64,000 nucleotides of DNA. Source: an uncultured Planctomycetaceae bacterium. GTDB taxonomy: Bacteria; Planctomycetota; Planctomycetia; Gemmatales; Gemmataceae. The notes under the pieces are model-generated. The model searched no databases. It saw only the letters and a list, made by a program, of their open reading frames with translations, and was not told the DNA's origin. This document shows, piece after piece, positions 16,685 through 59,398 of this stretch; the first letter of the stretch is position 1, and each line of letters begins with the position of its first letter. The position numbers were made by a program, and so were the translations under genes. The stretch is taken from positions 29,788-93,787 of the forward strand of contig CAVXNL010000019.1 in NCBI GenBank assembly GCA_963763045.1, given 5' to 3'.

Positions 16685-16738
16685 GATGCTGGATTTACCC
16701 CGAAGGGGTTGCATAGCTCAGCCGGGGGTCGCGTACTC

Positions 16739-16778: not shown

Positions 16779-16790
16779 CGGGCCGCGATC

Positions 16791-18123
16791 ATGGACCCCT
16801 CCACCTCTCTCGAAAGTCGTCTCCTCGGCCAAACCATCGCCGGCCGTTATCGCCTCAACGCCGTGCAGGCCAGCGGGGCGTTCGGCACCGTCTTCCATGC
16901 GCATCAATACTTTTGCAGCCGGTTCATGCGGCCGGTCGCGGTCAAGGTCTCGCGGCAGAGCGGGCTGACCGAGGAAAACGCGCCGGGGCTGTTCGGCGAT
17001 GCCATCGTCCTGGCGCGTCTGCTCGCCGAGGGGGATCACGACCACGAAGGCCGGGCGCATCTCGTGCAAATCTTCGACATGGGACTGCTGCCCGAGCACG
17101 ACGATCGCGCCTACCTGGCGATGGAGTACGTCGATGGCTCGCCGCTCCTGTCGCACATGCGCGCGGCGGGACGGTTCAGCGTTGCCACGGGATTGCGCTT
17201 CGTCAAACAGATCTGCCGGGCGCTGTCGCTGGTCCACGCCCAGGGGGCCGTCCACCGCGATCTCAAGGCCGACAACATCCTCGTGGACCGCCGCGGCGTG
17301 GTGCGCGTCGTCGATTTCGGCTTGGCCGCGTTCGCCGACGAGCGCATCGGCTTTGTGCCGGGAGCGATGGGCACGTTCACCTACATGGCTCCGGAAACGG
17401 TTTACGGTCGATCGACGCCCGCCTCCGACGTCTACAGTCTCGGCCTCCTCCTGTACGAGTTGTTCACCGGCGGCGGCCCGCATCTGAGCGCTCCGTGGCG
17501 GAATGACGAGAAGGACGACCGCTGCGACGAGAACTATCGCATCAAGAAGTCGTTCCGCTTCGATCCCCCCTCGCAAGCGCAGAACGAGATTCGGAACGAC
17601 TACCGCTGGCTGGACGCGCTGATCCTGCGCTGTCTGGAAACGGAACCGGAGCGGCGTTTCGCGGATGCGCGGACTGCTGACGGCCATCGAAAGCTGCGAA
17701 AACGGCGAACAACTGCCTGCTCTTCCTCCGCCGGTTGACGACGACTCACCCGCGCTCTCAACGCCGCGCACCGAAGACGCGGAGCGCGACCTGCTGCTCC
17801 GAGAAACGCGGCGATTACTGGCGGCGAAGGCCTACGATCGGGTGATCGACCAACTCGACGTGCATCGACCGCCGGAATGGGCCACGCTGGACACCTTCGG
17901 CGCCCGGACTCTGCGAGCGCTGGGACAGGCCTATCTCGGGCGCGGCGACCTGACCGTGGCACGCGATTGCCTGGAGCAGCTGCGAAGCGGCCAGAAGCAG
18001 CAGGCACTGCTCCCGAAGGCAGACTATGCGCTGGCGTTATCGGACCTGTTCAAGTGCTACCGCGCCCTGGGTCAAACGGAACTCGCCAAGATGTGTCAGA
18101 ATGAGGCACGCGGGTTGTTGTGA
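16791..18123 (+). CDS. Hanks-type Ser/Thr protein kinase with C-terminal helical (TPR-like) extension; frameshift near nt 17660
   Basis: MDPST...GAFGTVFHA...VAVKV...HRDLKADNILVD...VVDFGLA...TFTYMAPE...DVYSLGLLLYELFTG. The tail (ORF 17665-18123) continues after a shift at ...ERRFAD with GQAYLGRGDLTVARDCLEQL. Confidence 0.8.
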
Positions 18124-33200: not shown

Positions 33201-33607
33201 ACATTCGCCTCGCCACCGCTGAGCATGATGGCCGGCTGCGTCTCGTCCGCGCTCAGCGCGATGCCCTGCTCGCGCGCCTGAACGCACGCACGGGCCCATC
33301 GGCGGTAGGTGTGGCGATGCTTGGCGGCAGCGTCTTCTTCCGCGCCGGCCAGGAGGAGGTCGCCGGCATGACGGGGCGAGCCAATTTCCGCCTCTATTGG
33401 GAGGCCGTGGTGGACACGCTGAAGGACCGCCAAAAGATCCTGCTCGACGCCGACAAAATGCCGGAGCTGAGCAGTTTATGGCTGATGCGGCTGCTGCCGT
33501 TCGATTCGCTGCGCATGCCGTTCTCGACACGGCCGCCGGTGCTTCCGCCGGAAGCTGCCGTGAGACGAAAAGGGAGGCTCATTCCATGCGTAAGCTCTTC
33601 TGGCTGA
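30257..33607 (+). CDS. P1B-type heavy-metal-translocating ATPase (CPC motif, no N-terminal HMA domain) fused in frame to an HflK-like SPFH/band-7 domain; frameshifts near 30530, 30670 and 33195
   Basis: TM N-terminus (ORF 30257-30541), the actuator TGESLPVDK, CPCALILATP, DKTGTLTEG, MVGDGINDAPALARADVGLAL and the final TM ...LAVLLNAMRLL. The same uninterrupted 853-aa ORF then runs, with no stop, into a TM (VTTVLLGLAFACYTLSGL) and an SPFH domain (VNADEVALVRRFGKP...HWCWPWPIDAV...GVHLDGVSLHDLHPPQDVVASYHSV). The HflK C-terminus (RLYWEAVVDTLKDRQKILLDADKMPELSSLWLMRLLPFD) ends at 33607. Confidence 0.7.
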
Positions 33608-34552
33608 CCCTGCTCCTCGTCGGCGGAACGCTGCTGGCGTCGTCGTGCCTGTACTCGGTAGATCGCATCGACTTCGTCTATCTGACGCAGTTCGGCCGGC
33701 ACGTCGCCACGTTCGATGGGACGCGCGACGCCGATGCCGGGCTGCACGTCAAGTGGCCGTGGCCCATTCAGTCGGTGCAGCGCCTCGACCGGCGGCTGCA
33801 ATACTTCGACCTGCCCGGCGCCGAGTTGATGACCCGCGACCGCGATCGCAACACCATCGACAAGACGCTGACCATCGACGCCTACGTCTGCTGGCGCATC
33901 GCCGACGGCGAGGGCGTGGATCAGTTCGTCCGCACCGTCGGCACGGCAGAGAGTGCGCGGGCCATCCTTACGCAGCGGCTCGGCAGCGAGCTCGGCGCGC
34001 TGATCGGCGCCCGCGAGATGAATGACCTGGTCAGCACCGACCGGCTCGGCGGGAAGGTAGATGCGCGAGCGCGAACAAGCTCCGCGAGGAGCTGCTGAGC
34101 CGCGTGAAGCAGGTCCGGGAAGAGGCTGGTATTGAGGTGGTGGACGTGCGGCTGCGGCGCATCAATCATCCCGATTCGGTGCGCAAGGAGATCTTCGAGC
34201 GCATCCGCAGCGAGCGCGCGAAGATGGCCGCCGAGTACGAAAGCGACGGCAGGCGACAGGCCGCGGACATCCTGAGCAAGAGCGAGCAGCGCGATCGGAG
34301 AACCTCCGGACGCGGGCCAAGGCAGAGGCCGTGCGGCTGCGCGGCGACGCCGATGCGCGAGCCGACCGGATCCGCGGCGAAGCGCAGAAGCAGGATCCCG
34401 ACTTCTACGCCTTCCTCAAGAAGCTCGAGGCCTACAAGAGCATCTTCGGCGACAACAAGACCTTGTTGCTGCTCTCCACGCATCGAGAGATGTTCGACCT
34501 GTTCAACAATCCGCCGGGAATGAAGCCGGCGCCAAAACCGGGAGAGAAGTGA
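33586..34552 (+). CDS. hflC: HflC-like SPFH-domain membrane protease modulator; frameshifts near 34060 and 34320
   Basis: MRKLFWLTLLLVGGTLLASS (TM), HVKWPWPIQSVQRLDRRLQYFD, TIDAYVCWRI, then after shifts EIFERIRSERAKMAAEYESDG and RLRGDADARADRIRGEAQKQDPDFYAFLKKLEAYKSIFGDNKTLLLLS. The start overlaps the hflK-like stop. Confidence 0.75.
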
Positions 34553-41388: not shown

Positions 41389-44300
41389 TCATTGATCCCC
41401 GGTCAAGTTTGTCGGTTGCGGCAGCGCCTTGACACCGGTCGGCGTCCGCACCATCCCCGACGGCACTCCAACCGAGCTGCCCCAAGACTGGCAGTTTTGC
41501 CACAGCATCTTGTGCAGAGTACCAACCAGGTCCTCGGCCCCTCCACGGATGTGGAAAGGCTCCGGCGTCTTTAGTGAGTTCTTGCGCTCGAAGATCACTT
41601 GCCCGCGCTCATCGGTCAGGACGGCCCGGCAATCAACCATCTGGATCGGTACTTCAATCGTTCTTCGGCCGGCACGGGGACCGATGACGTTATACTGGGT
41701 CTTCTCGCCGGTGTTGCTGCTCCGGCTGGAACGAAATAACCAGTGCCGCCTGCCCCTGGTCGGCGACCTTCAGGCCGTGCTTCCCCAAGCTCTGCTTGAT
41801 GTTCTCCGTGATGCGCTTATGGAAATCAGCGTCTCCTGGAGGGCCGGCACCTTCGACGCGCACGCTGATCGTCATGCCGGGGCTGAGTACGGGCTGAACC
41901 CGCTTGGCGGCCACATCGGCAGCCAGTGTCTTGCTGACAGCGTCGGGGAACGACTGGGCCATCAGCACCGCCGGAGCGTTCGCCTGTCCGGCAAACGTGA
42001 ACCAGTGCCGGCCGTCCGGCGTGCCGGTGGCGTGCTTACCGCCGCCGCCGGGGATGTTGTAACTGAACGTGACCCACTTGAGGTTCAGATCGATGAGCTG
42101 ATTCTGATTCATCAGGTGGTCGGGGCCGCACCACTTCAGTTCGTTGTGGTAGATGTCGTTGGAGATCATCGCGATCGGGAATTCGTCGATCGGTACGCCG
42201 TCCGCGGCGTTCCAGCGGAGGAGGACGGTGCCGCCGTCTTGCTTCTGGACCGCCGCGGCGAACTCCTTGCCGTCCGGCTTGAACGCTGCCGCCCAGACGT
42301 TGGTAAAGACGGGGCCGGTGAAACCGCCCACGCGGTCGCCGGCAGCGGTTAGCATCTCGATCGCGGTGCCGGTATAGATCGCGAAGTATTTGCGGCCGGG
42401 GCTAATAATCGGCACGCCGCGGCAACCGTCCTGAGCCCACACCGCCTTGCACTCCGGCAGATCCCACAATACCAGTTTGCCGGCGGCGCCGAGGGTCAGT
42501 AACCGTTTGGCGTCGAGGAAGCCGATCCAGCGCACACCGGCATCGGCCTCCTTCTCGCACGGCAGCCAGCCGACGAAGTGCTTCTTGTCGGCCAGCGACC
42601 AGACGTCCACGCGCTTGCCATCTTTCGGCTCCTTGACGGCGATCAGGGCGCCGTCGGGGCTGAAGGCTGCGTCGATCTTGAGCTGCTGACCCTGCGGCGG
42701 TTCGGCGCTGAACAGGTCGAGACTGCCGAGGTTCTTGCCAGCGAGCAAGTCGTAGCGGTCGGCGCGGACCTGTTTCTGAACGACGACCTCGCTGGGCGCG
42801 GAGGCGCTCAGGACGGCGGCCTGGGCGGCGTCGGGAGCGAAGAGGATGAGCGCGAAGTCAGCGCCCTTGCCTTGCAAGGGGACGCTCTTGACCAGGGGCT
42901 TGCGGGCGGGTGCGGGATCGATCGCGGCTTTCCAATCGCCTCCGGCACCTGGAGCGGGCAGAGAACGGACCGCCGACCAGTCGGCGGCCTTAATGGGCGG
43001 CAGCTTCGTCGCCGTTGGGTCCTCGCCGTTGCGAATGGCCCGCTGAGCGGCTGCGACCTGATCGCTGGGAAGCGCGTCGACGATCAAAGTCTTAGCGCGA
43101 AAATCACCCTTGACCTGCGCCACGTGTTTCATGCCGAACTGACGGCGCGGCAGCGTGTCGCCGGGGGGCGGCGGCGGTAGCTTCCAGAAGATGACACCCT
43201 TTTCGGCATCGACAAATTGGGAACCGTTGACGAACCAGCCGGAGCCATCGGACAGCCATTCCAGCGGCGCACCTCGGTAGCCGAACGCGGTTGCCAGCCC
43301 CTGGGGAAACTTGTGGGTAAGCTTGACCTTGCCGGTCGTGGCGTCCCAAACGGTAATCTGGGGGGTGGCAACGACGGTGAACATTCCCGCCAGCGACTTG
43401 CCGTCCGAAGAAAAAGCCAGTCCTTGGCAGCCGGGAACGAAGAAGCCCTCTTTCTGAATCACTGCCTCACCGACCGCCATGCCGGTGGTCAGGTCGTAGA
43501 TCAGGATGCGTTCGCCATTCTTGTTGAGGATGGCGAGATACTTGCCGCCGGAGCTTATCGTCATCTGTCTCTTGTCCCCGTTCGCCGGCGGTGTGAACTG
43601 TGCGCACCTCAGCCCCGGTCTTGAGATTCCAGACCTGGAAGACCCGTTCTCCCTTGAGCGTCTTGGACGTCAACAGCTGGCCGTCGGCGATGAAGTCGAT
43701 CGTCTGCAAGCTCGACGTACCCGGTTTCTCATTATCGGCCATGATGTCGCCGATGCGCTGGCCGTTCGCCGTGGACCAGAGTTCCACGACCGGCCTGAAC
43801 TCCTGCGCCGGGCTTGCAAGCAACGAGCGATCCGTCTGGGCTGAGGGCATAAGGCTCCGAGAGCAATTTGCCGGCGCCGAGAGTGAACACGCCGACCTTC
43901 TTGACGTTGCGCAGGTCCCACACCTCGTAGAAGCTGGTCGGCCCTTGCAGCTGCGAAACCAGCACAAACGGACTCGGTGCAGACGGGAAGAGGGCGAGGT
44001 GCGTAAAACCGGCGATGGGGATCGCACCCTTGGTGGCATCGGGCAGAGTGACCGGCTGCGGCAGCGGATCGGCCGTGGCCTTCCAATCGGGAACGACCAC
44101 CGGCGGCACTACGGGGCGCGGCTTCGGATCGGGCTTGAAAATCGGTTCTTCCTGTTTCACCGGGAATTGGGGTTGCGGCCGACCGATTTCTTCGGGTTTC
44201 GGTTGCTGGCCCGGTTTGCGCTGCGGGAAGCCGCCATCCTTCTTCGGCCCCTCATCCTTTGGATTGTTGTTGCCGTGCGGTGGATCGTTGATAGCGACCG

Positions 44301-44645
44301 GTTCCGCCGGCTTGTTGTGCATCAACAGTGCCGCCGTCACGCCGCCGCCGACGAGCAGCACAAACGCCGCAATCCCGCCGACGATCCAGCCGACCGGCAC
44401 GCCGCGCGGCACTTCGAAGTCGTCGTCTTCGTCGCGCCGGCGGCGCGGCCGGACCGGTTCAGAGCGTGCAGGCGCAGCAAGCGGTGCCTTCTGCTTCGTG
44501 ACCACAGCCGGCCGGTTGTTGTAGGCGGCGCACTGGGCACGATGAAGACATTCGCACACTTCTTGCAGCGAACGTCTTTGCCGACGTAGCTTTCGGCCAG
44601 GTGGTAAACAGCGTTGCACTGCTCACAACTCACGCGGATTGTCAT
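41389..44645 (-). CDS. large membrane-anchored protein: N-terminal MJ0042-type zinc ribbon, TM, Pro/Lys-rich spacer, WD40/beta-propeller repeats; frameshifts
   Basis: MTIRVSCEQCNAVYHLAESYVGKDVRCKKCANVF (Zn ribbon), GWIVGGIAAFVLLVGGGVTAALL (TM), then a PKPEEIGRPQPQFP-rich stretch. Repeated WD-like blades follow in ORFs 43732-44619 and 41690-43564. Open continuation to 41389. Confidence 0.6.
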
Positions 44646-46175: not shown

Positions 46176-47670
46176 TCACGAGCCGCCGAACAGTTTCAGC
46201 AACTCGCCCAACTCCGTCGTGAGCGGATCCGAACCGGTGGGGGTAGTAGTCTTACGAAACTCGGCCGGACTCTCGAACCCCGGAGGATAGGCCAGTAACT
46301 CGTACACCTTCGCAAACTGTTTCTTCACGTCGTCGCTTTTCACGGCGCCGGGATTCGCCTGGTAGAGCGCCGTCAGACCGTAGACCATTTGCGTCGCCTC
46401 ATCCCAACTGAGCGCTGCGAGTTTCTTTGCATCGACGGCGGCGAGGTCCTTCGTCAGCTTGCCGACCTGTTCCTTGCTCAGGCTCTTACTGCTAAGCGAC
46501 CCCAATTTTTCCAGCGTCGCCTCGACCAGTTTGGCTACTTCTTTTCGATCGGGAGACGGCTTGCTCATCAGCCGGGCCAGCGCGGCGAAATCGGGTGCAT
46601 CGGCTCCCAGACTCTTTGCCAGTGTCGGCAGTCCTGTCGAGAACCACTCGTTGTAAGGCAGCCCACCGGGAACACGCTCCTTGATGTCGCGATAACCGGG
46701 CCGGTACCGGAAATCGCTGTGTGACTCCCGTAAGCTGGCGTGGCAGGCGAAACAGTTGTACTCGGCGAACTCGGGCCAGGGTTTCTGCTCGTCCTTGGCG
46801 CGAAAAGCCAGCAGATCGAGAGACGCCCGGGCCGACTCGGTGCGTCCCGCCGCCCACAGTTTCGCCTCGTAATCGGCCGGATACTTGTCGCGGCGCCAGT
46901 GGGCCGGTAAGTTCGCCTGGAACGTGCTCAACTCGAAGACCAGGCGCGGGTGGCCGGCGGCCATCAGGTCGTGGTTCAGATCGCGGGCCGGCACACCGTT
47001 CTTCGGATCGGCAGGGCGCCGACGTGACAACCGGCACAGACCCGCGCCTGCTCCCGCGGATCGCTCATCATCTTCATGCCCTGCTTGTCGTTGCTCGCCT
47101 TCCACCCTTTCAGTGTGTGCGCCGTCAGCCAGCCCGCCGCTCTCGGGGGCGAGTCCGTGGCAGGCTTCGCAGCCGATGCCTTCGGCTTGCAGCGCCCGCA
47201 TTTTGGCACCGTTCCCGACAGCGAACTCCGGCGTCGTGTGGCAGGCGAGACATTTCGGATCTTCGTAGGCGTTTATTTTCTTGCCGCCGTTCAGCGGGGC
47301 GAGGTTCTGGGCGATGCGATCGGCACGCGGCTCGTGCAGTACCTCGTAAGGCGCGGGTGTGCGGGTCGTGGCGCACCCAAGTCGTGAACTCGTTCTGCTG
47401 CACCCCGTCCTTGTTCGCCGTGAGGGCGCCGTGGCAGCCGCGGCCTGCGCAAGACCCACTGCCGGCGAGACCGTGACCGCGTGCGATAAGCGCAAGGATG
47501 TCCGGGTCCTCACTGACTTCAGCTTTCATATTCATGACGACGGCGCCGGCGTTTGCTCCTTCCGGTGCAGGGGAACGGGCCGAGTTGGCTGTACTCACCA
47601 GCGGATAGATCAGGACGGCGGGCAGCAAGCAGACGGCGAGAGCGGCCGACCTTCGGAGATTGTTCTGCAT
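46176..47670 (-). CDS. multiheme c-type cytochrome (secreted); frameshifts near 47130-47360
   Basis: Signal peptide MQNNLRRSAALAVCLLPAVLIYPLVSTANSA. CxxCH motifs CLACH, CEACH and CFACH lie in ORF 46176-47513, with a further GCHG-type site upstream. Confidence 0.75.
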
Positions 47671-48037: not shown

Positions 48038-48958
48038 TTGCCAGCGTCGCTGCTGGCTGCGCTCGCCAGTGTCTGGTACTTCGTCGCCAGCGCCAGTGTC
48101 GCAACCTGGCCGGGGGGCAGTAGCTTCCCCGGGTTCACCTTCGGCGTTCTCGGCGGTCTGATCTGCCTGTTCGAGTTCCTGCTCTGGCCGCGCAAGAAGT
48201 TCCGCGCCTGGCGTATCGGCCGGACGCAACACTGGATGCGGGCGCACATCTGGCTCGGACTGCTCGCCGTGCCGCTGCTGATCTATCACAGCGGCTTCCG
48301 CTGGGGCGGTTCGCTCAGCACCATCCTTATGGTGCTGTTCCTTGTGGTGATCGCCAGCGGCGTCTGGGGCCTGGTATTGCAGCAGTTCCTTCCCAGCAAG
48401 ATGCTCATGGAAGTCCCGGCCGAGACGATCTATTCGCAGATCCCGCGTATCTCCGGCATCATGGCGATGGAAGCCGAACGCCTCGTCCTGGCGACCTGCG
48501 GCGGCGAAGGCAACGTGACGCCGACAGATCAAGAAGAAATCGGCGATGTCGGCGTCGCACACATGGTGATCGGCAAGGTGCGGCATGTCGGCGGCGTCCA
48601 GGGCGTGGTGCTCGAAACGTTGGCGCCATCGCAGCCGATCACAAACACCGAGTTCCTCGCCAACGCCTTCCGCGACACCATCCGCAATTACCTGATGCAG
48701 GGGGCCAAATCCGGCTCGATTCTGGCCACGGCGCCGCGGGCCGTCGACTATTTCCGCACCGTCCGCGAGCGGATCAACCCGGATGCGCTTTCGGTCGTCT
48801 CCCACCTCGAAGGGTTGTGCGACCAGCGCCGCCAGTTCGACGCCCAGGAGCGGATGCACTTCTGGCTGCACAACTGGCTGTTCGTGCATCTGCCGCTATC
48901 GGTGGCCCTGATTCTGTTGATGTTCGTGCATGTGTACGTGACGCTTAAATACTGGTGA
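48038..48958 (+). CDS. integral membrane protein (4-6 TM) of unknown function, between the two cytochrome c genes; possibly a b-type-haem or quinone-interacting partner
   Basis: Hydrophobic segments LAALASVWYFVASASV, VLGGLICLFEFLLW, IWLGLLAVPLLIYH, TILMVLFLVVIASGVWGLVL, LFVHLPLSVALILLMFVHVYV, plus conserved His/Trp. Confidence 0.45.
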   Translation: MPASLLAALASVWYFVASASVATWPGGSSFPGFTFGVLGGLICLFEFLLWPRKKFRAWRIGRTQHWMRAHIWLGLLAVPLLIYHSGFRWGGSLSTILMVLFLVVIASGVWGLVLQQFLPSKMLMEVPAETIYSQIPRISGIMAMEAERLVLATCGGEGNVTPTDQEEIGDVGVAHMVIGKVRHVGGVQGVVLETLAPSQPITNTEFLANAFRDTIRNYLMQGAKSGSILATAPRAVDYFRTVRERINPDALSVVSHLEGLCDQRRQFDAQERMHFWLHNWLFVHLPLSVALILLMFVHVYVTLKYW

Positions 48959-49047
48959 TGTGATGGACACGACGAATAGGTCCTCTCGGGCCTATAAGTC
49001 CTATTCGGCTCCAGCCACAAACCCCCGGCCCCCTTGGAAACGAGCAT

Positions 49048-50545
49048 GGCTAACCAGACCCCAGGCGGCTGCGCCGCTCCAAACCGGTAAGGGACGAGCG
49101 ACTCGGATTCCGCTCGACTACTACAAGACCGCCAACCCTCTGGAAAAAGGCAAACTCGTGCTGGCGGGAGTCGCCGTCCTCGGCACCTGCGTCTGGCTGG
49201 CCCTGGGGTTCGCCACGTCGGACGGCGGCCAGTCGCGCTACTCTCGCGGCCAGGTAGCCAAGGTTCACGAGAAGTGGAACAACGACTGCCAGGCGTGTCA
49301 CGTTCCCTTTTCGCCGATCAGCGAGCAGAGCTTGTTCATGAGCCATCCGTCGCCGGCGGACAAGAACTGTCAGGATTGCCACGCCAAGAACAACCGTGCA
49401 ACCGGCGACCATTACGTAGGCCGCGAACCGGCGTCGAACCAACTCAGGAGTTGTGCAGGCTGTCACCGCGACCATCACGGCGCGGAGGCCGATTACTCGC
49501 TCGTCCGCCTGGCTGACGCCGATTGCGCCTCGTGCCACAAGGACCTGAAGAACCACTACGGTTCGGGTAAGCCCATCGTGTTCGCCAACGACGTCACGTC
49601 GTTCGCCAAACACCCCGAGTTCGGTGCTTATTCGAAGGGGGTGAAAGATCCCGGCAAACTGAAGTTCAACCATAAGCTGCACATGCAGCCCGGCCAGGTT
49701 CCGGCTGACGGCATCGGTGCCTACACCCTCGACAAGATCAAGACGCTCGACCGCGGCGCGATGAGCGCTTCAAGGACGCGGCCTGGCAGACGGACAAAGC
49801 GGACACGGCGGCCGTCCAGCTCGATTGCGCCGCGTGTCACGTGCCGACGAAACCGGTTGAACAGGGGGCCTCCACGGCGACGGCGGGCCGTTACATGCAG
49901 CCGATCAAGTACGACGCCCATTGCAAGGCGTGCCATCCGCTGACGTTCGACACCGACAAGGAAGCTCTACCGCATGGTCAACCACTGGCCAAAATCGACA
50001 TCTTGCTCGAAGCGGCGTACAAGGACTACAAGCCCTCGCCGGCCAAGCCGAGTTCACGGCCGCTGCTCTCGAAACCACTCGCCAGCCCCGAACAGATGCG
50101 GACAACTGCGGATCTCGTCAAGGAAGCAAAGCGGTACATCGAGGGAACCCGGGCGGGTTGCGTCGAATGCCACTTCATCGAGGTCCGAGAAGGTAAAAAA
50201 GAGATCGAACCGGTGCATGTTCCGGAGGTGTGGTTCAAACATGCCAAATTCAGTCATCTTGCCCACCCGTCGACGGTAGCCAAGTGCATTGACTGTCACG
50301 GGAAGGCCAAAGAATCCACCGATCATGCCGACGTGCTGATTCCTGACCTCAAGAGCTGCCAGACCTGTCACGCGCCGGAAAAGTCGGAGGGCGGTAGAAA
50401 GATTGGCGGCGCCCGCCATGACTGCACGGCCTGCCATGTGTTCCATCACAATGAGCAGGTGAAACCCGGTGTCGTCGGGCTGGACGCCGATCCGCGGACC
50501 GCGCTGGAGTGGCGCTTGTTGCTGCCGAGTAAATCGAGGAAGTGA
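49048..50545 (+). CDS. membrane-anchored deca-haem c-type cytochrome; frameshifts near 49070 and 49800
   Basis: An N-terminal TM anchor (LVLAGVAVLGTCVWLALGFA), then CxxCH sites: CQACH, CQDCH, CAGCH, CASCH, CAACH, CKACH, CVECH, CIDCH, CQTCH, CTACH. Confidence 0.75.
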
Positions 50546-50718
50546 GCATCGTCCGCCGCTTGCGGCTTAGCGAGGAGCCGCCTTTAAGCAGTGGTTTCAA
50601 AATCTTGTACCGCCGACATTCCTGTCGGCACGGGCCGGCAAGAATGCCGACGGTACGAGGTTTTTTCACCGCGTCTAGGCCGCAAGCGGCGGACAGGATC
50701 TCAGCGAGTGACTATCTC

Positions 50719-51090
50719 ATGATCGTACAAGAACTTCGCCACATCCAGGAACGCTGCGGCTGGCTGCCCAAGGAAGAGATGCGGGCACTGTCGGAACGGC
50801 TGAAAGTGCCGCTGCACCGCTTGCACGAAGTGGCCAGCTTCTATCCGCTCTATCGTCTTGAACCGCCGCCGACCGTCGAGGTGCACGTTTGCCGCGACAT
50901 GGCCTGCCACATCAACGGCGCCGCGCAGCTGACGAGAACCTCGAAGCCTACGGCAAGGAGCTCGGAGGCGAAGAAGGTCAAGGTCTGCGGCGTCTCCTGC
51001 CTCGGCCAGTGCGACAAGCCCGTCGCTGTCATCGTCAACGAGCATCACGTCTACCGCGGCCTCTCCGAAGACGGAGATCAAGCGTACTGA
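50719..51090 (+). CDS. NuoE/HoxE-like thioredoxin-fold [2Fe-2S] subunit; frameshifted
   Basis: MIVQELRHIQERCGWLPKEEMRALSERLKVPLHRLHEVASFYPLY...VHVCRDMACHINGA, then after a shift ...VKVCGVSCLGQCDKPVAVIVNEHHV. Confidence 0.7.
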   Translation: MIVQELRHIQERCGWLPKEEMRALSERLKVPLHRLHEVASFYPLYRLEPPPTVEVHVCRDMACHINGAAQLTRTSKPTARSSEAKKVKVCGVSCLGQCDKPVAVIVNEHHVYRGLSEDGDQAY

Positions 51091-52444
51091 TGCGCACCGC
51101 CCTGAAGAAGGAGCCGCTGCCGCACGAACACGTCGATTCCGCTCCGCTCGGCTGGAAGATCGATCCCTACAAGGGCAAGCCGCAATACGACGCGCTGAAG
51201 CAATACATCGCCGAGAACAAGAACGCTCTCGCGCTCATCAAGAAGCTGGAAGTGTCCAGCCTCCGCGGCATGGGCGGCGCCGGCTTCCCGACGTTCCGCA
51301 AGTGGTCGGCGGTGCGCGGCGCCCCGGCGACGAAAAGTACGTCGTCTGCAACGCCGACGAGAGCGAGCCGGGCACGTTCAAGGATCGCGAGCTGCTGCGG
51401 CGGACGCCGTGGCTGGTCATCGAGGGCATGATCCTGGCCGGCCTCGTCGTCGGGGCCAAGCAGGGCTGGATCTACATCCGCCACGAGTATCCCGACGAGG
51501 AACGAGGCCGTCGAGAAGGCGCTGCACGAGGCCCGCGAGATGGGCGTCCTGCGGCGACAACGTCCTCGGCTCCGGGCATGCCGTTCCAGCTCGAAATCTT
51601 CATCAGTCCCGGCGGCTATGTCCAGGGCGAAGAAAGCGCGCTGCTGGAGGCGATGGAGGATCGCCGCGGCGAGCCGCGCAACAAGCCGCCGTTTCCGGTG
51701 TTCAACGGCCTGTACAACAAGCCGACCGTCATCAACAACGTCGAGACGCTGAGCTGGGTGCCGGGCATCGTGCTGAACGGCGGCGAATGGTATCGCGAAC
51801 CAGGGCATCAACGGCGAACCCGGCATGCGCTTCTGTCTCGGTCAGCGGCGACGTGGTCAAGCCGGGCGTCTACGAGGTGCCGTTCGGCCTGAAGGTGCGG
51901 GAGCTGATCTTCGAACCGGAATACTGCGGCGGCATGCGGCCGGGACGCAGGTTCAAGGCGATCGCGCCGTCCGGGCCGTCCGGCGGCTTCTTGCCGGCGA
52001 TGATCAAGCTGACCAATCTGCCGCCGAAGTTCGTGCAGGACCGCCTCAATAAGCGAAGACGTTGCCTTCGCCTTTCTCGACTTGCCGCTCGGCCTGAACA
52101 CGTTCGACGAGTTCGGCGGCATGCTCGGAGCCGCTCTCATCGTCTACGACGACACGCCGCGACATCGTCGAGAACGCGCTCAATTGCGTCGAGTTCTACC
52201 GCAACGAGTCGTGCGGCAAGTGCGTCCCCTGCCGGACCGGCTCGCAGAAGCTGGTCGAGCTGATCGGCCAGATGATGGACCAGCAAGTTCCCGCGCGACC
52301 CAGCTGCCGCTGGTCGGCGAGCTGGCCGACACGATGTGTATCGCGTCGATCTGCGGCCTGGGCCAGGTGGCATCGAACCCGATCGCCTCGGTGCTGAAGC
52401 ACTTCCCCGAGGAGCTGGATAAGTATATGCGCAACGGCGCGTGA
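51089..52444 (+). CDS. NuoF/HoxF-like NAD(H)- and FMN-binding [4Fe-4S] flavoprotein subunit; at least 4 frameshifts
   Basis: SSLRGMGGAGFPTFRKW, YVVCNADESEPGTFKDRELL, GAKQGWIYIRHEYP, QGEESALLEAMEDRRGEPRNKPPFP, TVINNVETLSWVP, VSVSGDVVKPGVYEVPFG, NESCGKCVPCRTG. The ATG overlaps the NuoE-like stop (TGATG). Confidence 0.8.
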
Positions 52445-52447
52445 ACT

Positions 52448-52511
52448 CGTTTAGCCGCGAGCTGTTTGCGAGCGCTGAGCCTCGGCGCTCGCAAAAGCTC
52501 GCGGCTAAACG
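52448..52511. repeat. perfect 64-nt palindromic stem-loop in the 92-nt gap between the nuoF-like stop and the next gene's ATG
   Basis: CGTTTAGCCGCGAGCTGTTTGCGAGCGC...GCGCTCGCAAAAGCTCGCGGCTAAACG, nested inverted repeats. Confidence 0.8.
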
Positions 52512-52536
52512 AAAGACCTCATTGTCGAGACTTCTC

Positions 52537-54912
52537 ATGAGTCCTGCTGACAATAACGAACCGCTGGTCATGGAAGGCCATTATGTCGAGCTGGAAAAGA
52601 CCGTCGTCGATCTGCTCAAGGAGCCGCCGGTCAAGGTCACCATCGACGGCAAATCCATCGAGATCCCGCGCACCACGCTCGTCGAGAACCCGGTGACCGG
52701 CAAGGTCGAGCCGAAGCCGACGACCATCTACGACGCCGCCCTCAAGCTCGACATCAAGATCCCGATCCTGTGCCACCGCGAGCACATGACCCCCGTCGCC
52801 GCCTGCCGTTTCTGCACCGTCGATGCCGGCGGCCGGGTGCTGACGGCCGCCTGTCACCGGCAGGTCGAGCCGAACATGGTCGTCCACACCGGCAACGCCG
52901 ACACGCCGCAGGGCAAGCGCGTCCGGAACACGATCAAGGTGCTGACCGAGCTGCTGCTCGCCGATCACGAAGTGCCGCGCGAGGCACATAAGGAGTACGG
53001 CGACAACGAGCTGCGCACCATCGCCAAGAACCTCGGCCTCAATCCGTACTCCTCGCGCTTCCCCAAGTCCGGGCGCGACCGCGGTCAGACGAGTCGTCGC
53101 TCGTCATCGCCGTCGATCACAACGCCTGCATCCTGTGCGACCGCTGCATCCGCGGCTGCAACGAAGTGCGCAACAACCAGGTCCTGGGCCGGATGGGCAA
53201 GGGGTACAAGGCGCACATCGCCTTCGACCTCAACGACCCGATGGGCCAATCGAGCTGCGTCTCGTGCGGCGAGTGCATGATCTCCTGCCCGACCGGGGCA
53301 CTGACGAATCGGAAGTTCGTCGGCGCCGATCCGTGGGCCGCCGTGCGCAGACAAGGTTCAGTCGGTCAATCCCGCGGACCTCTACAAGAACCCGCTGTTC
53401 GAGGGCGTATCGCGCCAGTTCCTCGAGTTCAACAAGGGCTCCGTGGTCCGGCGCACGTTCAAGACCGGCGACATCATCTGCCGCGAAGGCACGGCCGGCT
53501 CGACTGCGTTCCTCATCGAAAAGGGCAAGGTGGAGATCCGCATCACGTCGCCGATCAAGCACGCCAAGGCGCAGAAGATCGGCGTCCGCGGCATCTTCCG
53601 CAAGTTTGCCAGTGCCCTCGTCGGCCGCGGCGAGGACTCGCGCGATGAGGAGAGCCGGTCGTCGTTCATCCACATCGACGGCCCCGTGTCGCTGAAGTAC
53701 TCCGATCCCGTCGCCGAGCTGGACGAAGACGACCTGATCTTCGGCGAAATGACGTGCATGAACAACTACCCGCGGTCGGCAACGGTCGTGGCCAAGACCG
53801 ATGTGACCGTGCTGGAAGTGCTGCGCAACGTCCTCTACATCTTGCAGCGCAACAAGAAGTCGAAGGCGAAGCTCGACGCCGTCTACCGCCGGCGCTCGAT
53901 CGACAACCATCTCCGTAGCGTGCCGATCTTCGCCGACCTGCAACAGGATGAGACGCAGTTCAAGCGCTTCATCGACTTCTTCCGCGAGCGTGTCCAGCTG
54001 GTGCGGCTGGCACCGGGTGAGACGATCTTCCGCCAGGGCGACAGGGCCGACGCCTTCTTCATGGTGCGCGTCGGCTTCGTGAAGGTGTCGCAGAATCAGT
54101 CAGGCGGCGAGCAGGTGCTGGCTTACATCGGCCCCGGCGGCTATTTCGGCGAGATCGGTCTGATGGCCGACGACGCCGACGTAAGCCGGCTGGCCCCCGC
54201 CGGCGTCCGCACCGCAACCTGCACGGCCCTGGACCACGTGGACATTGTGCGCATGAAGGCGTCGGACTTCCGCCAGATCCTGACGGACTTCCCAGCCGTC
54301 GCCGACAAGATCAAGTCGCGGGCGATCGAGATCCTGAAGAAAAACGAGGCGACCCGCGAGCGCGTGCAGAAGGTGCCGCTCGGCGAGTTCGTTCGCCAGG
54401 GCTTGCAGGAGGCGACGTATCTGCTGGTGCTCGACCTGGAGAAATGCACGCGCTGCGACGAATGCACCAAGGCCTGTGCCGACACCCACGATGGCGTGAC
54501 ACGGCTGATCCGCGAGGGTTTGCGGTTCGACAACTACCTGGTGGCGTCGTCGTGCCGGTCGTGTCTCGATCCGTACTGCATGGTCGGCTGCCCGGTCGGC
54601 TCGATCCGCCGCCGCCAGTCGCGCGAGATCATCATCGAGGACTGGTGCATCGGCTGCGGCAAGTGCGCCGAGAATTGCCCTTACGGCAACATCAACATGC
54701 ACCCGTTCCCGACGAACCAGCTGATGGACGATCCGAACAAGCCAGGCTTCAAAGTGCCGGTGGTGCAGCAAAAGGCGACGCTGTGCGACCAGTGCAGCGA
54801 GCTGGACGGCCAGCCGAGCTGCGTCTACGCCTGCCCGCACGACGCGGCGCATCGCATGTCGGGCAAGCAGCTGATCGGGATCGTGGAGAAGCGGGCGGCG
54901 GCGATGAAGTGA
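52537..54912 (+). CDS. multidomain redox/sensor protein: NuoG/HydA-N-terminal-like ferredoxin module ([2Fe-2S] + His-ligated and 2x [4Fe-4S]) + two cyclic-nucleotide-binding (CAP) domains + C-terminal poly-ferredoxin (4x CxxCxxCxxxCP); frameshifts near 53090 and 53350
   Basis: VKVTIDGKSIEIP...ILCHREHMTPVAACRFCTV...TIKVLTELLLADH, then after a shift NACILCDRCIRGCNEVRNNQVLGRMGKGYKAHIAF...SCVSCGECMISCPTGAL. CAP domain 1 follows (LYKNPLFEGVSRQFLEFNKGSVVRRTFKTGDIICREGTAGSTAFLIEKGKVEI), then CAP domain 2 (VRLAPGETIFRQGDRADAFFMVRVGFVKVS...YIGPGGYFGEIGL). The C-terminus has CTRCDECTKAC, CRSCLDPYCMVGCP, CIGCGKCAENCP, CDQCSELDGQPSCVYACP. Confidence 0.7.
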
Positions 54913-55079
54913 GAGGCCGGGGGTGAACTGTGATCGTTAGAGAGAACGCCTCCCGCTGTGAGCCGACTCTTGAAGACGGCGGGGTGGCAAAGAAGGTCCG
55001 TTCGTGCGAAGGAATGTTTACGTTTCGCGAGGTGTCTTCCCCGCGAAACGTAAACGAGAAGGGGTTGCACCGACGGGAT

Positions 55080-55585: not shown

Positions 55586-57728
55586 TCAGACTTGGGGGGC
55601 CGGGTAGTGTACGTGCAGCCAGTCGGTCACTTCGGCGTCTCCTTGCGCGAGTCGCTCAAGCAGGCCGCCAGGAGGGACACCCGTGGGTACGAAACAGAAT
55701 ACGGTCAGGAGGCAGAGAATTAGCATACGGGCTGTTTCTGGGCCACCCTCCACGAAGACTTGCGTGGACAGCTGTACCGCGAACTGACCGAGATGCGCGA
55801 ACTGAGCCGCAGTCAGAATCCCGTTCGGGAATTGTCCCTCCAGCATCACGGTCATCTCAATCAGGTTTTGTCGCCCCGCAGGCGTGAACCCTGTGGGGCG
55901 AGGTGCATCGTGTCGCAAGATCCGATGATTACACGCAACGGCCCACTCGGCCAGTTGCTCGGCAGTCAGCGTCATCGCTGGACCGCGCCAGCCTGTGCCT
56001 CCTTCGGCCTTTTCACGATGCCGTTCGAGAATCTGCCGTACTTCTTCGGCCACTGCCCTGCGATAGACCTCATCGGTGTCGTAGCGGCGTAACCGACGTA
56101 ACACGGCGTCACGCTTCCCTTCCGGCGGCGGTTGCTGGCGATTTTCGCCGTCCGAACCGTGCAGGACTTCGTAGAGCGGGCCGTGCCGCAGGTGATTCCA
56201 GAACAGCTCTTCCACATCGATTCGGTTGGCATTCGCCAAATTCTCCGGCAGCTGGCTGCACAGTAATCTGCCGATGTGAAAGCCGAGTTGCCGGTAGGAT
56301 TCGACCATGTCCGGATCGTAAAACTGATTGACCGTCGGATCGTGCGGGAACGGTTGCCGGTGATGGAAATGACGCAGCAGATCATTCTCTTCGTCCTTAG
56401 TCAGCGACGGCTTGAGGTAGATGATGTAACCCTCCTTGCAGGTGCGCGGTTGAACTCCGTCCGGCATGTAGTCATCGGGATAAAGCACGCGGCCGATGAA
56501 GAAATGGTAGCGGCAAGTGTCATCTTCCTTGACACTCAACGGCTGGAGGTCGATCGGCCGTTTGTCGTGGAGGTCGAGGACCTCGACACCGTGGAAGAGG
56601 CGTACCCGGCGGCACACCTTCAGAAAATCCTCGAACGAGTGTCTGGGATCTTCGCCGGCATCGGAAACGACGATGAGCTTGCAGCGGCGTTGCAACAGTG
56701 CCCAGAGGCCGAGGTTTTCGCTGTGGCCGCCGTCCGTGACCAGGCACCAGGCGCGATCCTCGGCATCGAAGAGCAGGTGATCGGCCAGAAGCATCGGCAA
56801 CGTGGGCCAGGGTAGGATCTGTACGTGGCGCCAAATCCACGACATCCACGAATGTTTGCCGGCGCTGGGATTGAGCAACCACTGGCCGAGCCGCATATTG
56901 AACACCGCGAGCAGCACACCCCATGCACCCTTGACCTGTGATGGGCTGACGGCGGCGCCTGAGATGGCGGTAACCTCGGCGAGATCATCGCGTCCATGAA
57001 ACCACCTTCTCAGCCACTTCCATCGACTCAAGTACGGCGCCGTCGGCACACACTGGGTGACGGAGGAACCGCAGTAGAGCGGCGAAAACAGGAACGGCCA
57101 GGAACGATCCTCGCTGCGGGAGTCGCCCAAGAGGTTGAGCGTACCGGAGAAGAGGGGATACGGTTCGCTCCCCCGCCTCGGCGCGTCCAGTTCGGAGAGG
57201 CGAATGAATCGGCCCTGCCCGGTTCTGGGTTCGACGTACTGTTCTGCGCAGCCGGTCGCGATAGAAGCCGTGCATGGCCGTCCAGTTTACGTTGACCAAG
57301 CCGATGAGGAGGCACACCCAGAACGAGCCACAGAGGATACGCAGACGAACGTACTGATCTTCCTCGGCCAATGTCGTCCGCTGGCCGATACCTCCGAGCC
57401 ATTGCAACGTTTCCCCCGGCGTGAGACGATCGTCAATCCACTCGGGGAGTTTTTCGGTCACGGCCTGGTCGATCGGCTTACTGGCGCGGACGATGTTCTG
57501 CCGATTGGCGGCAACGAGACCGAGATGGCGCGGCCTACCATATTCCGGAAGGAGGGAAAGTTCGAGTGCAAAGCGGTCCAAGTCGCCCGGGAGGGCTTCG
57601 TTTGAAACCAGGCTTAGCCACAGGGCATTAGCGGAATTGTCCGGCCAGCATTTTAATAGCAATCGATTCACTCCCTTCATGGCGGCTGGGGTTTCTTCCC
57701 AACGCGGTAGGAGCGTGAAGGCGGCGCC
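55586..57728 (-). CDS. 3' portion of a large membrane patatin-like phospholipase gene (contains the DGG catalytic-Asp motif), separated from its 5' portion by an IS insertion; internal frameshift near 57000-57130
   Basis: LVTDGGHSENLGLWALLQRRCKLIVVSDAGEDP matches the patatin D-G-G block. The reading frame is open on the minus strand from the IS boundary (…GAAFTLLPRWEETPAAMKGVNR…) with no stop. Confidence 0.55.
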
Positions 57729-59398
57729 GGTACTACCCTCAAGTTTACCCGGAACATTCTACCATCGCGTGACAGGAGGTCTGTGTCTCTACGTGATTGT
57801 ATTTTTTTCCACCGCAGCGCCGTGACGCCCCCTGGGCATAAGCTGGCGAACCTTTGCGGCTGTGCCCGCAGCTTTCCGAGCCTCTGTACTCTGGTAGTTT
57901 TTGCAATCACGTACCAGACCACCGCACCGCTCTTGACCACACGACCATCCTGAAAGTGACGGCAGGGTTGCACTGGTCACGAGGGCACGGTCATGACGAC
58001 AGACGCACGGTTCGGCGAACATAACTTCGGCGCGGCCTTTCTGGGACACAAACGGCGCACCGATTGTCTGGTGCGCATCGCACACCAGATTTACCGTCAT
58101 CCCGGCGGGACCTTGCCCGCCAAGCTGCACGAGCCCAAGGATTACAAGGCGATGGACCGGCTCATGAACCGCCCCGAGGTGACGCACGCCGCCGTGCTGG
58201 AGCCGCACCGCCAGCGGACCCTGCAACAGATGCGTCTGGCTCCCGGCGTGGTCCTGGTGTTGCATGACACCACCGAACTCGACTACTCGGGGCTGCGTTC
58301 GATCCCCGACCTGGGTCCGATCGGCGGCGGCCTCAACCGTGGCTACTTGTGCCACAACAGCCTGGCTTTCGACCCGCAGCGACACGAAGTCCTCGGTCTG
58401 GCCAACCAAATCCTGCATCGGCGCCGCCACGTCGGTCGCCACGAAAAAGTGCGGGCCAAACGCGAACGCCGCGATCGCGAAAGCCGGTTGTGGATCGACG
58501 GCGTCGCCGCGGTCGGCCCCGCTCCGGACGGCTGCACCTGGGTGCATGTCGCGGATCGCGGCGCCGACACCTTCGAGTTTCTCGCCCGCTCCTGGGGGCC
58601 ACACGAAGGGTTCGTGATGCGTTCCAAGGTCAACCGCGTGATCCGCCACGGCCACCATGACCCGCAGGGTCCCAAAGACTATCTGCACACCTATGCACGC
58701 ACGCTGCCGCTGCAGGGACACCGGGAAATCGTCGTGTCGGCACGGCCGGGCCAGCCCGAACGCAAGGCGGTCGTCGCCGTGTCGTTCGCGCCGGTGTTGC
58801 TCAGTCCGCCGCACGTGCGTCGCGGCTTGTATGAGAAGCGGCCGCTGCCGCTGTGGGTCGTGCGCGTGGCCGAAATCAAGCCGCCCAAGGGCGTCGCGCC
58901 GGTGGAGTGGATCCTGCTGACCGACCGCAAGGTGGGCACGCTGGCGGACGCCTGGGAACGGGTGGATTGGTACGGCGACCGCTGGATCATTGAGGAATTG
59001 CACAAGGCGCAAAAGAGCGGTTGCGCCATCGAAGATCTGCAGTTCACTACGTCGGCGGCCCTGCAACCGATGATCGCGCTGCTGTCGGTGGTGGCGGTGG
59101 CGTTGCTGAACCTGCGCGAAGCCAGTCGGCGACCGGATGCCAAGGAGCGGCCAGCGACGGAGGTGGTGGATGCACGCTACGTGGCCGTGCTGAGTGCGTG
59201 GCGTTACAAAGAGGTACGGCCGGAGTTGAGCATCCATGACTTCTTCTATGCTTTGGCGCGCCTGGGTGGCCATCAGAACCGCAAACGCGACCATCGCCCC
59301 GGCTGGCTGATCCTGTGGCGCGGCTGGATGGCCTTGCAACACATGGTCGATGGTGCGGAAGCTCTGAAAAGTTGTGGGTAAACTTGAGGGTACTACCC
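57729..59398 (+). mobile_element. IS4-family insertion sequence (~1.67 kb) with 22-bp imperfect terminal inverted repeats
   Basis: IRL GGTACTACCCTCAAGTTTACCC (57729-57750) and IRR GGGTAAACTTGAGGGTACTACC (59376-59397) match 21 of 22. A single intact DDE transposase ORF lies inside, and the IRR overlaps its stop codon. Confidence 0.85.
57993..59381 (+). CDS. IS4-family DDE transposase (462 aa, intact)
   Basis: VLHDTTELDYSG (D1), WVHVADRGADTFEF (D2), YGDRWIIEELHKAQKSGC (E / YREK-like region), typical of the IS4 family. Confidence 0.85.
   Translation: MTTDARFGEHNFGAAFLGHKRRTDCLVRIAHQIYRHPGGTLPAKLHEPKDYKAMDRLMNRPEVTHAAVLEPHRQRTLQQMRLAPGVVLVLHDTTELDYSGLRSIPDLGPIGGGLNRGYLCHNSLAFDPQRHEVLGLANQILHRRRHVGRHEKVRAKRERRDRESRLWIDGVAAVGPAPDGCTWVHVADRGADTFEFLARSWGPHEGFVMRSKVNRVIRHGHHDPQGPKDYLHTYARTLPLQGHREIVVSARPGQPERKAVVAVSFAPVLLSPPHVRRGLYEKRPLPLWVVRVAEIKPPKGVAPVEWILLTDRKVGTLADAWERVDWYGDRWIIEELHKAQKSGCAIEDLQFTTSAALQPMIALLSVVAVALLNLREASRRPDAKERPATEVVDARYVAVLSAWRYKEVRPELSIHDFFYALARLGGHQNRKRDHRPGWLILWRGWMALQHMVDGAEALKSCG

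Follow-up and report, generated by a model that had tools for sequence, protein, structure and literature searches.

The window analyzed here is the full 64,000-nucleotide stretch of contig CAVXNL010000019.1 (positions 29,788 to 93,787 of the forward strand; GenBank assembly GCA_963763045.1) from an uncultured Planctomycetaceae bacterium. At 52537-54912 (+), in window coordinates, it carries a gene whose product joins an N-terminal iron-sulfur (Fe-S) module of the HoxU/NuoG type, two tandem cyclic nucleotide-binding (CNB) domains of the CAP fold, and a C-terminal Fe-S domain with four cysteine groups. This protein, hereafter the target, belongs to a widespread, uncharacterized family; it is encoded next to a NuoE-NuoF fusion, a polytopic membrane protein and two multiheme cytochromes c, and this company suggests that it may conduct electrons from NADH toward the periplasm under the control of a cyclic nucleotide.

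Gene Cluster and Conserved Neighborhood

The full five-gene set of this cluster is present in the window. The target is accompanied by a NuoE-NuoF fusion (50719-52444, +), whose domains, according to the Pfam matches of an orthologue, comprise a thioredoxin-like [2Fe-2S] domain, a flavin mononucleotide (FMN)/NADH site, an SLBB domain and the N3 [4Fe-4S] site, and whose reading frame changes approximately ten times; by a membrane-anchored decaheme cytochrome c (48960-50545, +) with an N-terminal transmembrane helix and one frame change near 49762-49814; by an intact polytopic membrane protein of 306 amino acids (aa) with five predicted transmembrane helices (48038-48958, +); and by a divergently transcribed tetraheme cytochrome of the cytochrome c554 family (46180-47551, -), which has a signal peptide and likewise shows frame changes.

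To define the conserved neighborhood, one genome per species was scanned, which yielded at least 587 stretches matching the target; locus counts refer to the best 80 of these, which span residues ~30-780 of the target. All open reading frames (ORFs) of the 80 loci were clustered and the conserved families then annotated: the target was found in 80 loci, NuoEF in 74, the membrane protein in 72, and the decaheme and tetraheme cytochromes in 67 each. The NuoE-NuoF partner (~570 aa) adjoins the target in 74 of the 80 loci; it is a paralogue that scores below the NuoF equivalog cut-off. Ten CxxCH motifs were counted in 66 of 67 decaheme orthologues and four in 65 of 69 tetraheme orthologues, and the decaheme gene abuts or overlaps the gene of the membrane protein. 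The gene set is constant and its order is permuted between phyla: tetraheme (reversed), NuoEF, target, membrane protein and decaheme in Acidobacteriota; tetraheme (reversed), membrane protein, decaheme, NuoEF and target in Gemmataceae and Tautonia; and membrane protein, decaheme, NuoEF, target and tetraheme, all in one direction, in Pirellulales. No NCBIfam family scored above its cut-off for the target, the decaheme, the tetraheme or the membrane protein.

The soluble NAD(P) transhydrogenase SthA (539 bits against an NCBIfam cut-off of 465) adjoins the cluster in 19 of the 80 loci, in two phyla; related Gemmataceae loci have an SthA gene after the target, but the window does not. Besides SthA and a class III cyclase (13 loci), no genuine family occurred in more than ~25 of the 80 loci, and neither a pentaheme cytochrome nor a porin was seen among them. 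The conserved neighborhood of the 80 loci also lacks hydrogenase genes, other nuo genes, molybdopterin genes and membrane anchors of the NrfD, NarI or FdnI type.

Reading Frame of the Target Gene

The target gene becomes a single ORF of 791 aa, running without internal stop from an ATG at 52537 to the stop codon at 54910-54912, once two single-nucleotide indels are corrected. The frames were located by three-frame translation of positions 50500-55000 and the ORF list: frame 1 extends from 52537 to 53087, frame 0 from 53088 to 53348 (encoding DESSLVIAVDHNACILCDRC...CVSCGECMISCPTGAL), and frame 1 is resumed, stop-free, from 53350 to 54912. Correspondingly, the four closest database proteins each produced three contiguous high-scoring segment pairs in tblastn searches, with query residues 1-181, 182-268, and 269 to the end. 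A DNA alignment with the intact orthologue of the related contig L001, 91% identical over this stretch, fixes both lesions to a single base. The first is a 1-nt deletion between 53087 and 53088 (+), a G missing from GGTCA[G]GAC, which shifts the frame from 1 to 0 and is also indicated by the tblastn segments; the second is a 1-nt insertion at 53349 (+), a surplus A in GTGCGC[A]GAC, which shifts it back from 0 to 1. The initial annotation had described a one-base frame slip at the junction of the Fe-S and CAP parts of one ~790-aa protein; the slip at 53349 and the protein size are borne out, but the other lesion, at 53088, had been overlooked, and the window as it stands contains no single ORF, since the uncorrected frame from 52537 ends at a stop at 53278. 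The public record of the source contig (116,997 bp, NCBI/ENA) has the same lesions and calls the target as two products of 247 and 489 aa.

Since the 120 best relatives are intact single ORFs with the same architecture, the two indels are probably assembly errors. It is improbable, by contrast, that the cluster is a real pseudogene in which the indels are genuine and the protein is not made. The identical frameshifts and the two separate products in the public record would fit gene decay, as would the approximately ten frame changes in NuoEF and the damage to the decaheme and tetraheme genes. Against it, each frame segment of the target is free of stop codons; the corrected protein retains all 28 Fe-S cysteines, every one of the 172 positions at which 65 relatives are identical, and 135 of the 140 at which they are nearly so; and it is 81-87% similar to its relatives, on par with the relatives among themselves. 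Moreover, a codon-usage Viterbi map shows that frame changes are concentrated in certain genes, including window genes unrelated to the cluster, while adjoining genes of 1.2-2.5 kb are clean. The hot spots are 10345-11960 (-), with ~14 changes in 1.6 kb, and NuoEF at 50708-52436 (+), with ~10; further affected regions lie at 3096-6670 (-), 24527-26370 (-), 33196-34523 (+), 43549-44434 (-) and 46180-47551 (-). This clustering suggests that a long-read assembly was left unpolished in places, as opposed to evenly spread errors or decaying genes; in the related contig L001, whose name (contig_..._np1212) hints at a nanopore assembly, NuoEF is fragmented in the same way. The protein P0392 (814 aa), a cluster mate of the target, was considered as a second assembly of the same genome and ruled out; it is merely 87% identical and therefore comes from a different organism.

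Domain Architecture

The first frame segment (residues 1-184; 52537-53087, +) contains an N-terminal leader and a HoxU/NuoG-type [2Fe-2S] domain, identified by Pfam and PDB matches, with the ligand set Cys79, Cys90, Cys93 and Cys106 (nt 52771-52854). The second (residues 185-271; 53088-53348, +) is ferredoxin-like, matches Fer4_Nqo3 and Fer4_21, and holds two [4Fe-4S] motifs, CILCDRCIRGC at 53127-53159 (residues 198-208) and CVSCGECMISCP at 53256-53291 (residues 241-252). The first CNB/CAP domain follows at approximately residues 282-441 (53380-53859, +), delineated by Pfam and by alignment with CRP, with its binding cassette FGEMTCMNNYPRSATVVA at 53740-53793; the second occupies approximately residues 462-586 (53920-54294, +; best Pfam stretch 487-581), with the cassette FGEIGL...GVRTATCTA at 54145-54228. 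The C-terminal domain (54421-54912, +) is of the four-cluster DmsB/HydN/HybA type, as judged from Pfam and from family matches below cut-off; its four cysteine groups are CTRCDECTKAC (54445), CRSCLDPYCMVGCP (54553), CIGCGKCAENCP (54646) and CDQCSELDGQPSCVYACP (54784), beginning at residues 637, 673, 704 and 750. In the reconstructed protein, Pfam detects Fer2_4 (residues 62-120, E = 1.7e-9), Fer4_Nqo3 (residues 190-257) and Fer4 dicluster families (residues 665-768), and cNMP_binding (PF00027) in three stretches covering the two CNB domains, with 113.6 bits against a gathering cut-off of 27.5 (E = 4.2e-33). All NCBIfam matches remain below cut-off; those at the C-terminus are to HydN, DmsB, AegA, DsrO and HybA.

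The fusion of a NuoG-like N-terminus and two cyclic nucleoside monophosphate (cNMP) domains in one polypeptide thus stands as proposed in the initial annotation, as do the match of its CAP-like regions to the cNMP_binding profile and the stop-free continuation of the second CAP domain (CAP2) into CTRCDECTKAC and on to CIGCGKCAENCP within the ORF 53443-54912; the four [4Fe-4S] motifs counted there were too few. In total, the target has one [2Fe-2S] motif and six [4Fe-4S]-type motifs, two N-terminal and four C-terminal, each with four cysteines. The His-ligated N5/FS4C motif (HxxxCxxCxxxxxC) is degenerate in the window protein, which reads HEVPREAH..GDNEL without any cysteine; some relatives keep two of the N5-motif cysteines (HPTPC..GDCEL).

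Both CNB domains are extended. The first (CAP1) holds a conserved insert of ~60 aa (target residues ~330-395, window ~53524-53720) that is predicted with a local distance difference test score (pLDDT) below 50, and yet is kept in sequence across phyla, with (near-)invariant H, G, G, L, R, D, I, D, P, V and L; it may serve in docking and adopt its fold solely in the assembled complex. The cassette of CAP2 contains an insertion of 9-10 aa. A short beta-hairpin leader, PVKVTIDGKSIEIP, is found once in all members; one Isosphaeraceae protein (P0085, 987 aa) has, before its [2Fe-2S] domain, an N-terminal extension of ~200 aa composed of ~25-aa repeats (…VRLVVDG.EVP…; alignment columns 1-200) that resemble this single leader.

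Family Distribution and Natural Variants

The architecture of the target is far beyond chance, as judged from its relatives, and it is not rare; it belongs to a large family hidden under automatic names such as [quoted passage not shown] or "cyclic nucleotide-binding domain-containing protein". A word-indexed search for the same architecture, as the initial annotation had advised, recovered over 5000 proteins (E <= 1e-10), of which the top 120 carry the full architecture with the same Pfam families in single ORFs of ~745-990 aa, at 58-86% identity. An exhaustive search found 916 clusters at E <= 1e-30, with representatives at 50% identity. The hosts of the best 80 stretches include Gemmataceae, Pirellulales, Isosphaeraceae (among them the cultured Tautonia sociabilis GM2012, locus L009, with a member of 790 aa), many Acidobacteriota, a few Verrucomicrobiota, and others.

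Natural variants rearrange the modules of the target. The protein P0151 (1483 aa; JGI 3300047160, a 98,861-bp contig) unites NuoE, NuoF, the HoxU-like module, CAP and the four-cluster domain in a single chain, and its neighbors are PSCyt2/PSD1 and DUF1501 proteins in place of the decaheme and membrane-protein genes. In the loci L083 and L084, two overlapping genes separately encode the HoxU-like part (395 aa) and the CAP-CAP-four-cluster part (530 aa); they sit between NuoEF and the decaheme and membrane-protein genes. In L085, an FNR-like NAD-binding protein and a small ferredoxin substitute for NuoEF and HoxU, and the CAP-CAP-four-cluster protein, the membrane protein (hmmsearch 7e-80) and a 10-heme cytochrome are retained. 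The gene order in L086 is a c554-like cytochrome, the CAP-CAP-four-cluster protein, the membrane protein (with a faint Ferric_reduct match), and a 10-heme cytochrome. These variants define an invariant core consisting of the CAP-CAP-four-cluster protein, the membrane protein and the decaheme cytochrome; by the same comparison, the cytoplasmic NAD(P)H-oxidizing module is exchangeable, and the window protein is the version with the HoxU-like adaptor fused onto the core. Homology of the membrane protein extends to every variant. The standalone CAP-CAP-four-cluster form is established from full-length members; P0174, an apparent further case, was set aside since its contig is just 1.6 kb long and the gene, lying at the end of it, may be incomplete.

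Putative Cyclic Nucleotide Binding Sites

Both CNB domains carry canonical cassette motifs, FGEM..PRSAT in CAP1 and FGEI..VRTAT in CAP2, and in a BLAST alignment with E. coli CRP the CAP1 residues E404 and R413-S414 align with CRP E72 and R82-S83; the cassette Glu and Arg of CAP2 are E539 and R558 of the corrected window protein. The Glu and Arg of both domains, which in CNB domains contact the ribose 2'-OH and the phosphate, respectively, are invariant in the 120 closest relatives. Among 150 diverse representatives sharing at most 50% identity, Glu is kept in 124 of 131 and Arg in 127 of 135 sequences for CAP1, and in 127 of 141 and 91 of 109 for CAP2; that the Arg/Glu phosphate-binding cassette would be conserved, a check suggested together with the initial annotation, is thus corroborated at 83-95% in both domains. 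In the same representatives the Fe-S cysteine groups are kept at 95-100%; at the C-terminus, 131 of 131 have complete groups I-III and 114 of 120 a complete group IV. On this evidence, the CAP domains have the appearance of true cNMP-binding domains. The R-S-A of the CAP1 cassette is that of CRP and the R-T-A of CAP2 that of the cGMP-selective sites of PKG; by analogy, this hints that the two sites may prefer different nucleotides.

A genomic link to cyclic nucleotides is seen in some loci. Class III cyclases with different sensor domains neighbor the cluster in L083 and in 13 of the 80 loci, in two phyla. Twelve acidobacterial loci of one clade (L016, L019, L021, L032, L038, L043, L049, L054, L061, L063, L064 and L071) have a CHASE2-domain membrane adenylate/guanylate cyclase of ~787 aa (~14480-17900, - strand) that is convergent with the decaheme gene and usually abuts it; the planctomycete cyclases are a GAF-cyclase in L013 and its homologue in L083. 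In the latter locus, a GAF/cyclase-type class III cyclase and a NAD kinase (669-2504 and 2642-4009) lie upstream of the split cluster and a PDEase_II/metallo-beta-lactamase-like gene (16933-17593) lies downstream, so that the cyclase could synthesize, and the PDEase_II-like protein degrade, a cyclic nucleotide right next to the protein presumed to bind it.

The Membrane Protein

The family alignment of the membrane protein (~320 aa) shows five hydrophobic helices and a conserved insert of ~150 aa, which is placed in the cytoplasm on the basis of the positive-inside rule. Four His residues are invariant and form two pairs with members 14 residues apart, H83/H97 in the third transmembrane helix and H297/H311 in the fifth, with one His of each pair near each membrane face. 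We infer that this protein is a transmembrane electron carrier of the di-heme-b type, with two bis-His b hemes. Structure prediction gave a confident helical-bundle model. A faint Ferric_reduct match was obtained for one orthologue; a search of the membrane-protein profile against PDB sequences returned nothing meaningful, and no likeness to the NrfD, NarI or FdnI families was detectable.

Proposed Function and Alternatives

Taking gene content, domain order and residue conservation together, we see roughly even chances that the target is a cNMP-regulated cytoplasmic Fe-S wire subunit of an NADH-linked transmembrane cytochrome complex. NADH would be oxidized at the FMN of NuoF; electrons would pass through the Fe-S clusters of NuoEF to the HoxU-like module and on to the four-cluster module, which would dock on the cytoplasmic face of the membrane protein; and two b-type hemes would carry them across the membrane to the decaheme and tetraheme cytochromes and finally to a periplasmic or extracellular acceptor. 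That the target is an electron-transfer polypeptide, as the initial annotation had it, is supported by the invariance of all Fe-S ligands and by the adjacent NuoE-NuoF gene, which in one relative is fused to it. The regulatory subunit of cAMP-dependent protein kinase (PKA-R) and PKG rely on a tandem CNB layout to translate the binding of a cNMP into a major conformational change. The target has the same layout, its CNB pair lies, in sequence, exactly between the two Fe-S modules, and we infer that electron flow through it is gated by a ligand. On this reading, cAMP or cGMP bound at the CNB pair would move the two Fe-S modules relative to each other, or alter how they dock, and would in this way switch on or off a conduit that otherwise drains NADH without coupling. 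Since such a path would use up NADH and dissipate membrane potential, there would be a rationale for a fast, ligand-dependent switch. The more specific proposal, a quinone-independent conduit from NADH to periplasmic multiheme cytochromes that is common in soil Acidobacteriota and Planctomycetota and whose Fe-S wire is switched directly by cAMP or cGMP at the tandem CNB domains, is put forward tentatively, as a possibility that is on balance doubtful.

Several points weigh against the reading of the target as a regulated Fe-S wire. Since the His-ligated N5-type cluster of NuoG and HydA is missing, the intramolecular path has to differ from that in the known modules. An AlphaFold2 model of the full-length closest intact relative reached a pLDDT of 64.7 and a predicted template modeling score (pTM) of 0.43, with Fe-S regions below 50; this model was dropped as a source of distances between the Fe-S modules, and is too poor to place the CNB pair between them in space. 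The CAP2 Arg is lost in ~17% of the diverse members (18 of 109); no cyclase or phosphodiesterase gene was found in the window, and most loci have no cyclase within 10 kb. Finally, the function of the related PtdE is described as "completely unknown" (bioRxiv 10.1101/2023.11.21.568154).

Among the alternatives, it is unlikely, if well worth considering, that the complex runs inwards, from a periplasmic donor through the cytochromes, the membrane protein and the target to NuoF, making NADH, or that it is reversible. The NuoEF and HoxEFU modules are reversible, proteins of the cytochrome c554 family are electron acceptors in periplasmic oxidations, the 80 loci share no porin-cytochrome partner for the outer membrane, and an adjacent SthA could distribute reducing power to NADP; yet inward flow to NAD+ (-320 mV) needs a donor of very low potential or an input of energy, the cluster encodes no ion-translocating subunit, and the replacement of NuoEF by an FNR-like NAD(P)H module is compatible with both directions.

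A constitutive electron flow through the same complex, with CNB domains that serve as a structural or dimerization spacer or bind some other ligand, is rather less probable still. CAP folds are known to be reused, binding heme in CooA and 2-oxoglutarate in NtcA, and both the loss of the CAP2 Arg noted above and the absence of a neighboring cyclase from most loci speak for this reading. But at 50% identity or less, the Glu and Arg that contact the ribose and phosphate are nearly as strictly kept as the Fe-S cysteines; the FGE..PRSAT and FGE..RTAT cassettes are canonical, and cyclases flank the cluster in two phyla.

The chances are small that the membrane protein instead has a quinone site, so that NuoEF and the target would form a non-pumping NADH:quinone oxidoreductase and the cytochromes a separate, quinol-oxidizing branch. 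Four-cluster proteins of the DmsB/FdnH type normally dock on quinone-reactive anchors, and di-heme b subunits like FdnI reduce quinone; the membrane protein of the cluster, in contrast, has no detectable similarity to NrfD, NarI or FdnI, and the decaheme gene not only abuts or overlaps its gene but always co-occurs with it. Electron bifurcation was set aside, as the NuoEF paralogue has standard domains only, without the extra ferredoxin domains of HydB-type subunits. The redox-sensing regulator of the CRP/FNR kind that the initial annotation had offered as another reading is highly improbable: the combination of CAP domains and Fe-S clusters superficially recalls FNR, but Pfam and NCBIfam detect no helix-turn-helix, DNA-binding or other output domain, the seven clusters are laid out as in electron-transfer modules, and the gene is encoded with, and sometimes fused to, NuoEF and conserved alongside the cytochromes and the membrane protein.

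Other Features of the Window

Pfam gave no match (E <= 1e-5) for a 514-aa ORF (55586-57130, -) immediately 3' of the target. A transposase-like ORF of 462 aa (57993-59381, +) follows shortly after the cluster and is overlain by an antisense ORF of 517 aa (57789-59342, -) that is probably an artefact of high GC content. Farther away, in a stop-to-stop ORF of 880 aa (30639-33281, +), P-type ATPase domains (E1-E2_ATPase, Hydrolase) occur together with an SPFH/Band_7 domain at the C-terminus; the ORF is either an unusual fusion or two genes joined by an indel.

Implications

If cyclic-nucleotide gating of the target is correct, it would be the first case of cyclic-nucleotide control exerted on an electron-transfer chain itself, rather than on transcription. 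Abundant soil and freshwater Acidobacteriota and Planctomycetota would then own an undescribed route from NADH to periplasmic multiheme cytochromes, serving as an overflow valve or as an entry point to extracellular respiration that skirts the quinone pool. A cyclic nucleotide would tune the activity of this route at the post-translational level, bacterial cAMP/cGMP signaling would gain a new class of targets, and protein "wires" that a ligand can switch would have a natural model. In genomes, the conserved gene set would serve as a marker for this capacity, and Tautonia sociabilis GM2012, as a cultured carrier, would make the hypothesis experimentally approachable.

Comparison with Known Systems

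The closest counterparts of the target's N-terminus are the Fe-S modules found at the same end of NADH-dependent [FeFe] hydrogenase, HoxU and NuoG. Residues ~57-262 align with HoxU of NAD-reducing [NiFe] hydrogenases and with the N-terminal modules of NuoG (Nqo3), of HydA from bifurcating [FeFe] hydrogenase and of FdsA/FdhA from NAD-dependent formate dehydrogenase, at E-values of 1e-15 to 1e-31, and the PDB matches to the N-termini of FdhA, HydA and NuoG reach ~1e-31; the HoxU model aligns over positions 18-213 of 238 (E = 1.9e-38). Its scores with the equivalog models, 132 bits for HoxU and 89 bits for NuoG, are nevertheless far short of the curated cut-offs of 333 and 470. It has in common with HoxU, NuoG, HydA and FdhA the [2Fe-2S] Cys4 motif, the ferredoxin domain with two [4Fe-4S] motifs, and a flavoprotein of the NuoE/NuoF type next door; unlike HydA, FdhA and NuoG, it has no catalytic domain (hydrogenase, molybdopterin domain or NuoG C-terminus), and its module continues into the CNB domains. 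At the other end, the four-group spacing (CxxCxxCxxxC; CxxCx4Cx3CP; CxxCxxCxxxCP; CxxCxnCx3CP) is shared with DmsB, HybA, HydN and NrfC. In contrast to the DmsB-type proteins of complex iron-sulfur molybdoenzymes, the target has no molybdopterin or hydrogenase partner; its four-cluster domain is cytoplasmic, is fused to CNB domains, and has as its presumed anchor an unrelated five-helix protein.

The tandem CNB domains with FGE...R[ST]A motifs are shared with PKG and PKA-R (E ~1e-18 to Plasmodium PKG), and the cAMP-contact residues of E. coli CRP align with those of the target. In contrast to PKG, PKA-R and CRP, the target is connected to no kinase, DNA-binding domain or channel, and its CNB domains carry the ~60-aa (CAP1) and 9-10-aa (CAP2) inserts; no helix-turn-helix family appeared in the Pfam and NCBIfam scans, and the CRP model scored 45 bits against a cut-off of 266. 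NCBIfam matches in the CNB region also lead to the mycobacterial acetyltransferase Pat and to the shell protein of family 2B encapsulins, in which CNB domains occur as allosteric modules; unlike the target, these are not redox proteins. To our knowledge, no electron-transfer chain is under the control of CNB domains, and the searchable literature yielded neither such a chain nor a characterized member of this family, in agreement with the remark in the initial annotation that no characterized example was known; a preprint on peatland Acidobacteria mentions only nuoEFG of complex I.

As a whole, the complex that the gene set would form follows the same logic as two kinds of known carriers. In the Tmc and Hmc complexes of sulfate reducers, periplasmic multiheme cytochromes are tied through a heme-b membrane subunit to a cytoplasmic Fe-S protein; in NOX, electrons from NADPH cross the membrane through two bis-His hemes, and cytochrome b561 carriers may be likened to it. 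The present gene set differs from Tmc/Hmc and NOX in that its membrane subunit has no sequence relationship with theirs, its input is an NADH flavoprotein, and CNB domains are placed on its Fe-S subunit.

The sole relevant mention in the literature concerns the ptdABCDEFG operon of marine Alphaproteobacteria, Nitrospirales and Planctomycetes (bioRxiv 10.1101/2023.11.21.568154), in which the CAP-CAP-Fe-S core of the target has already been noted under the name PtdE. By description, to which the comparison of the Ptd proteins is confined, the D-E-F-G core of the ptd clusters (a CNB and Fe-S protein, a ferric-reductase-like transmembrane protein, and a decaheme and a tetraheme cytochrome) is shared by the gene set of the target. 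In contrast to the ptd operon, neither the pentaheme PtdA nor the porin PtdB is conserved in the 80 loci; and, unlike PtdE, the target bears an extra HoxU-like N-terminus, while NuoEF stands in for the FAD/NAD(P) oxidoreductase PtdC.

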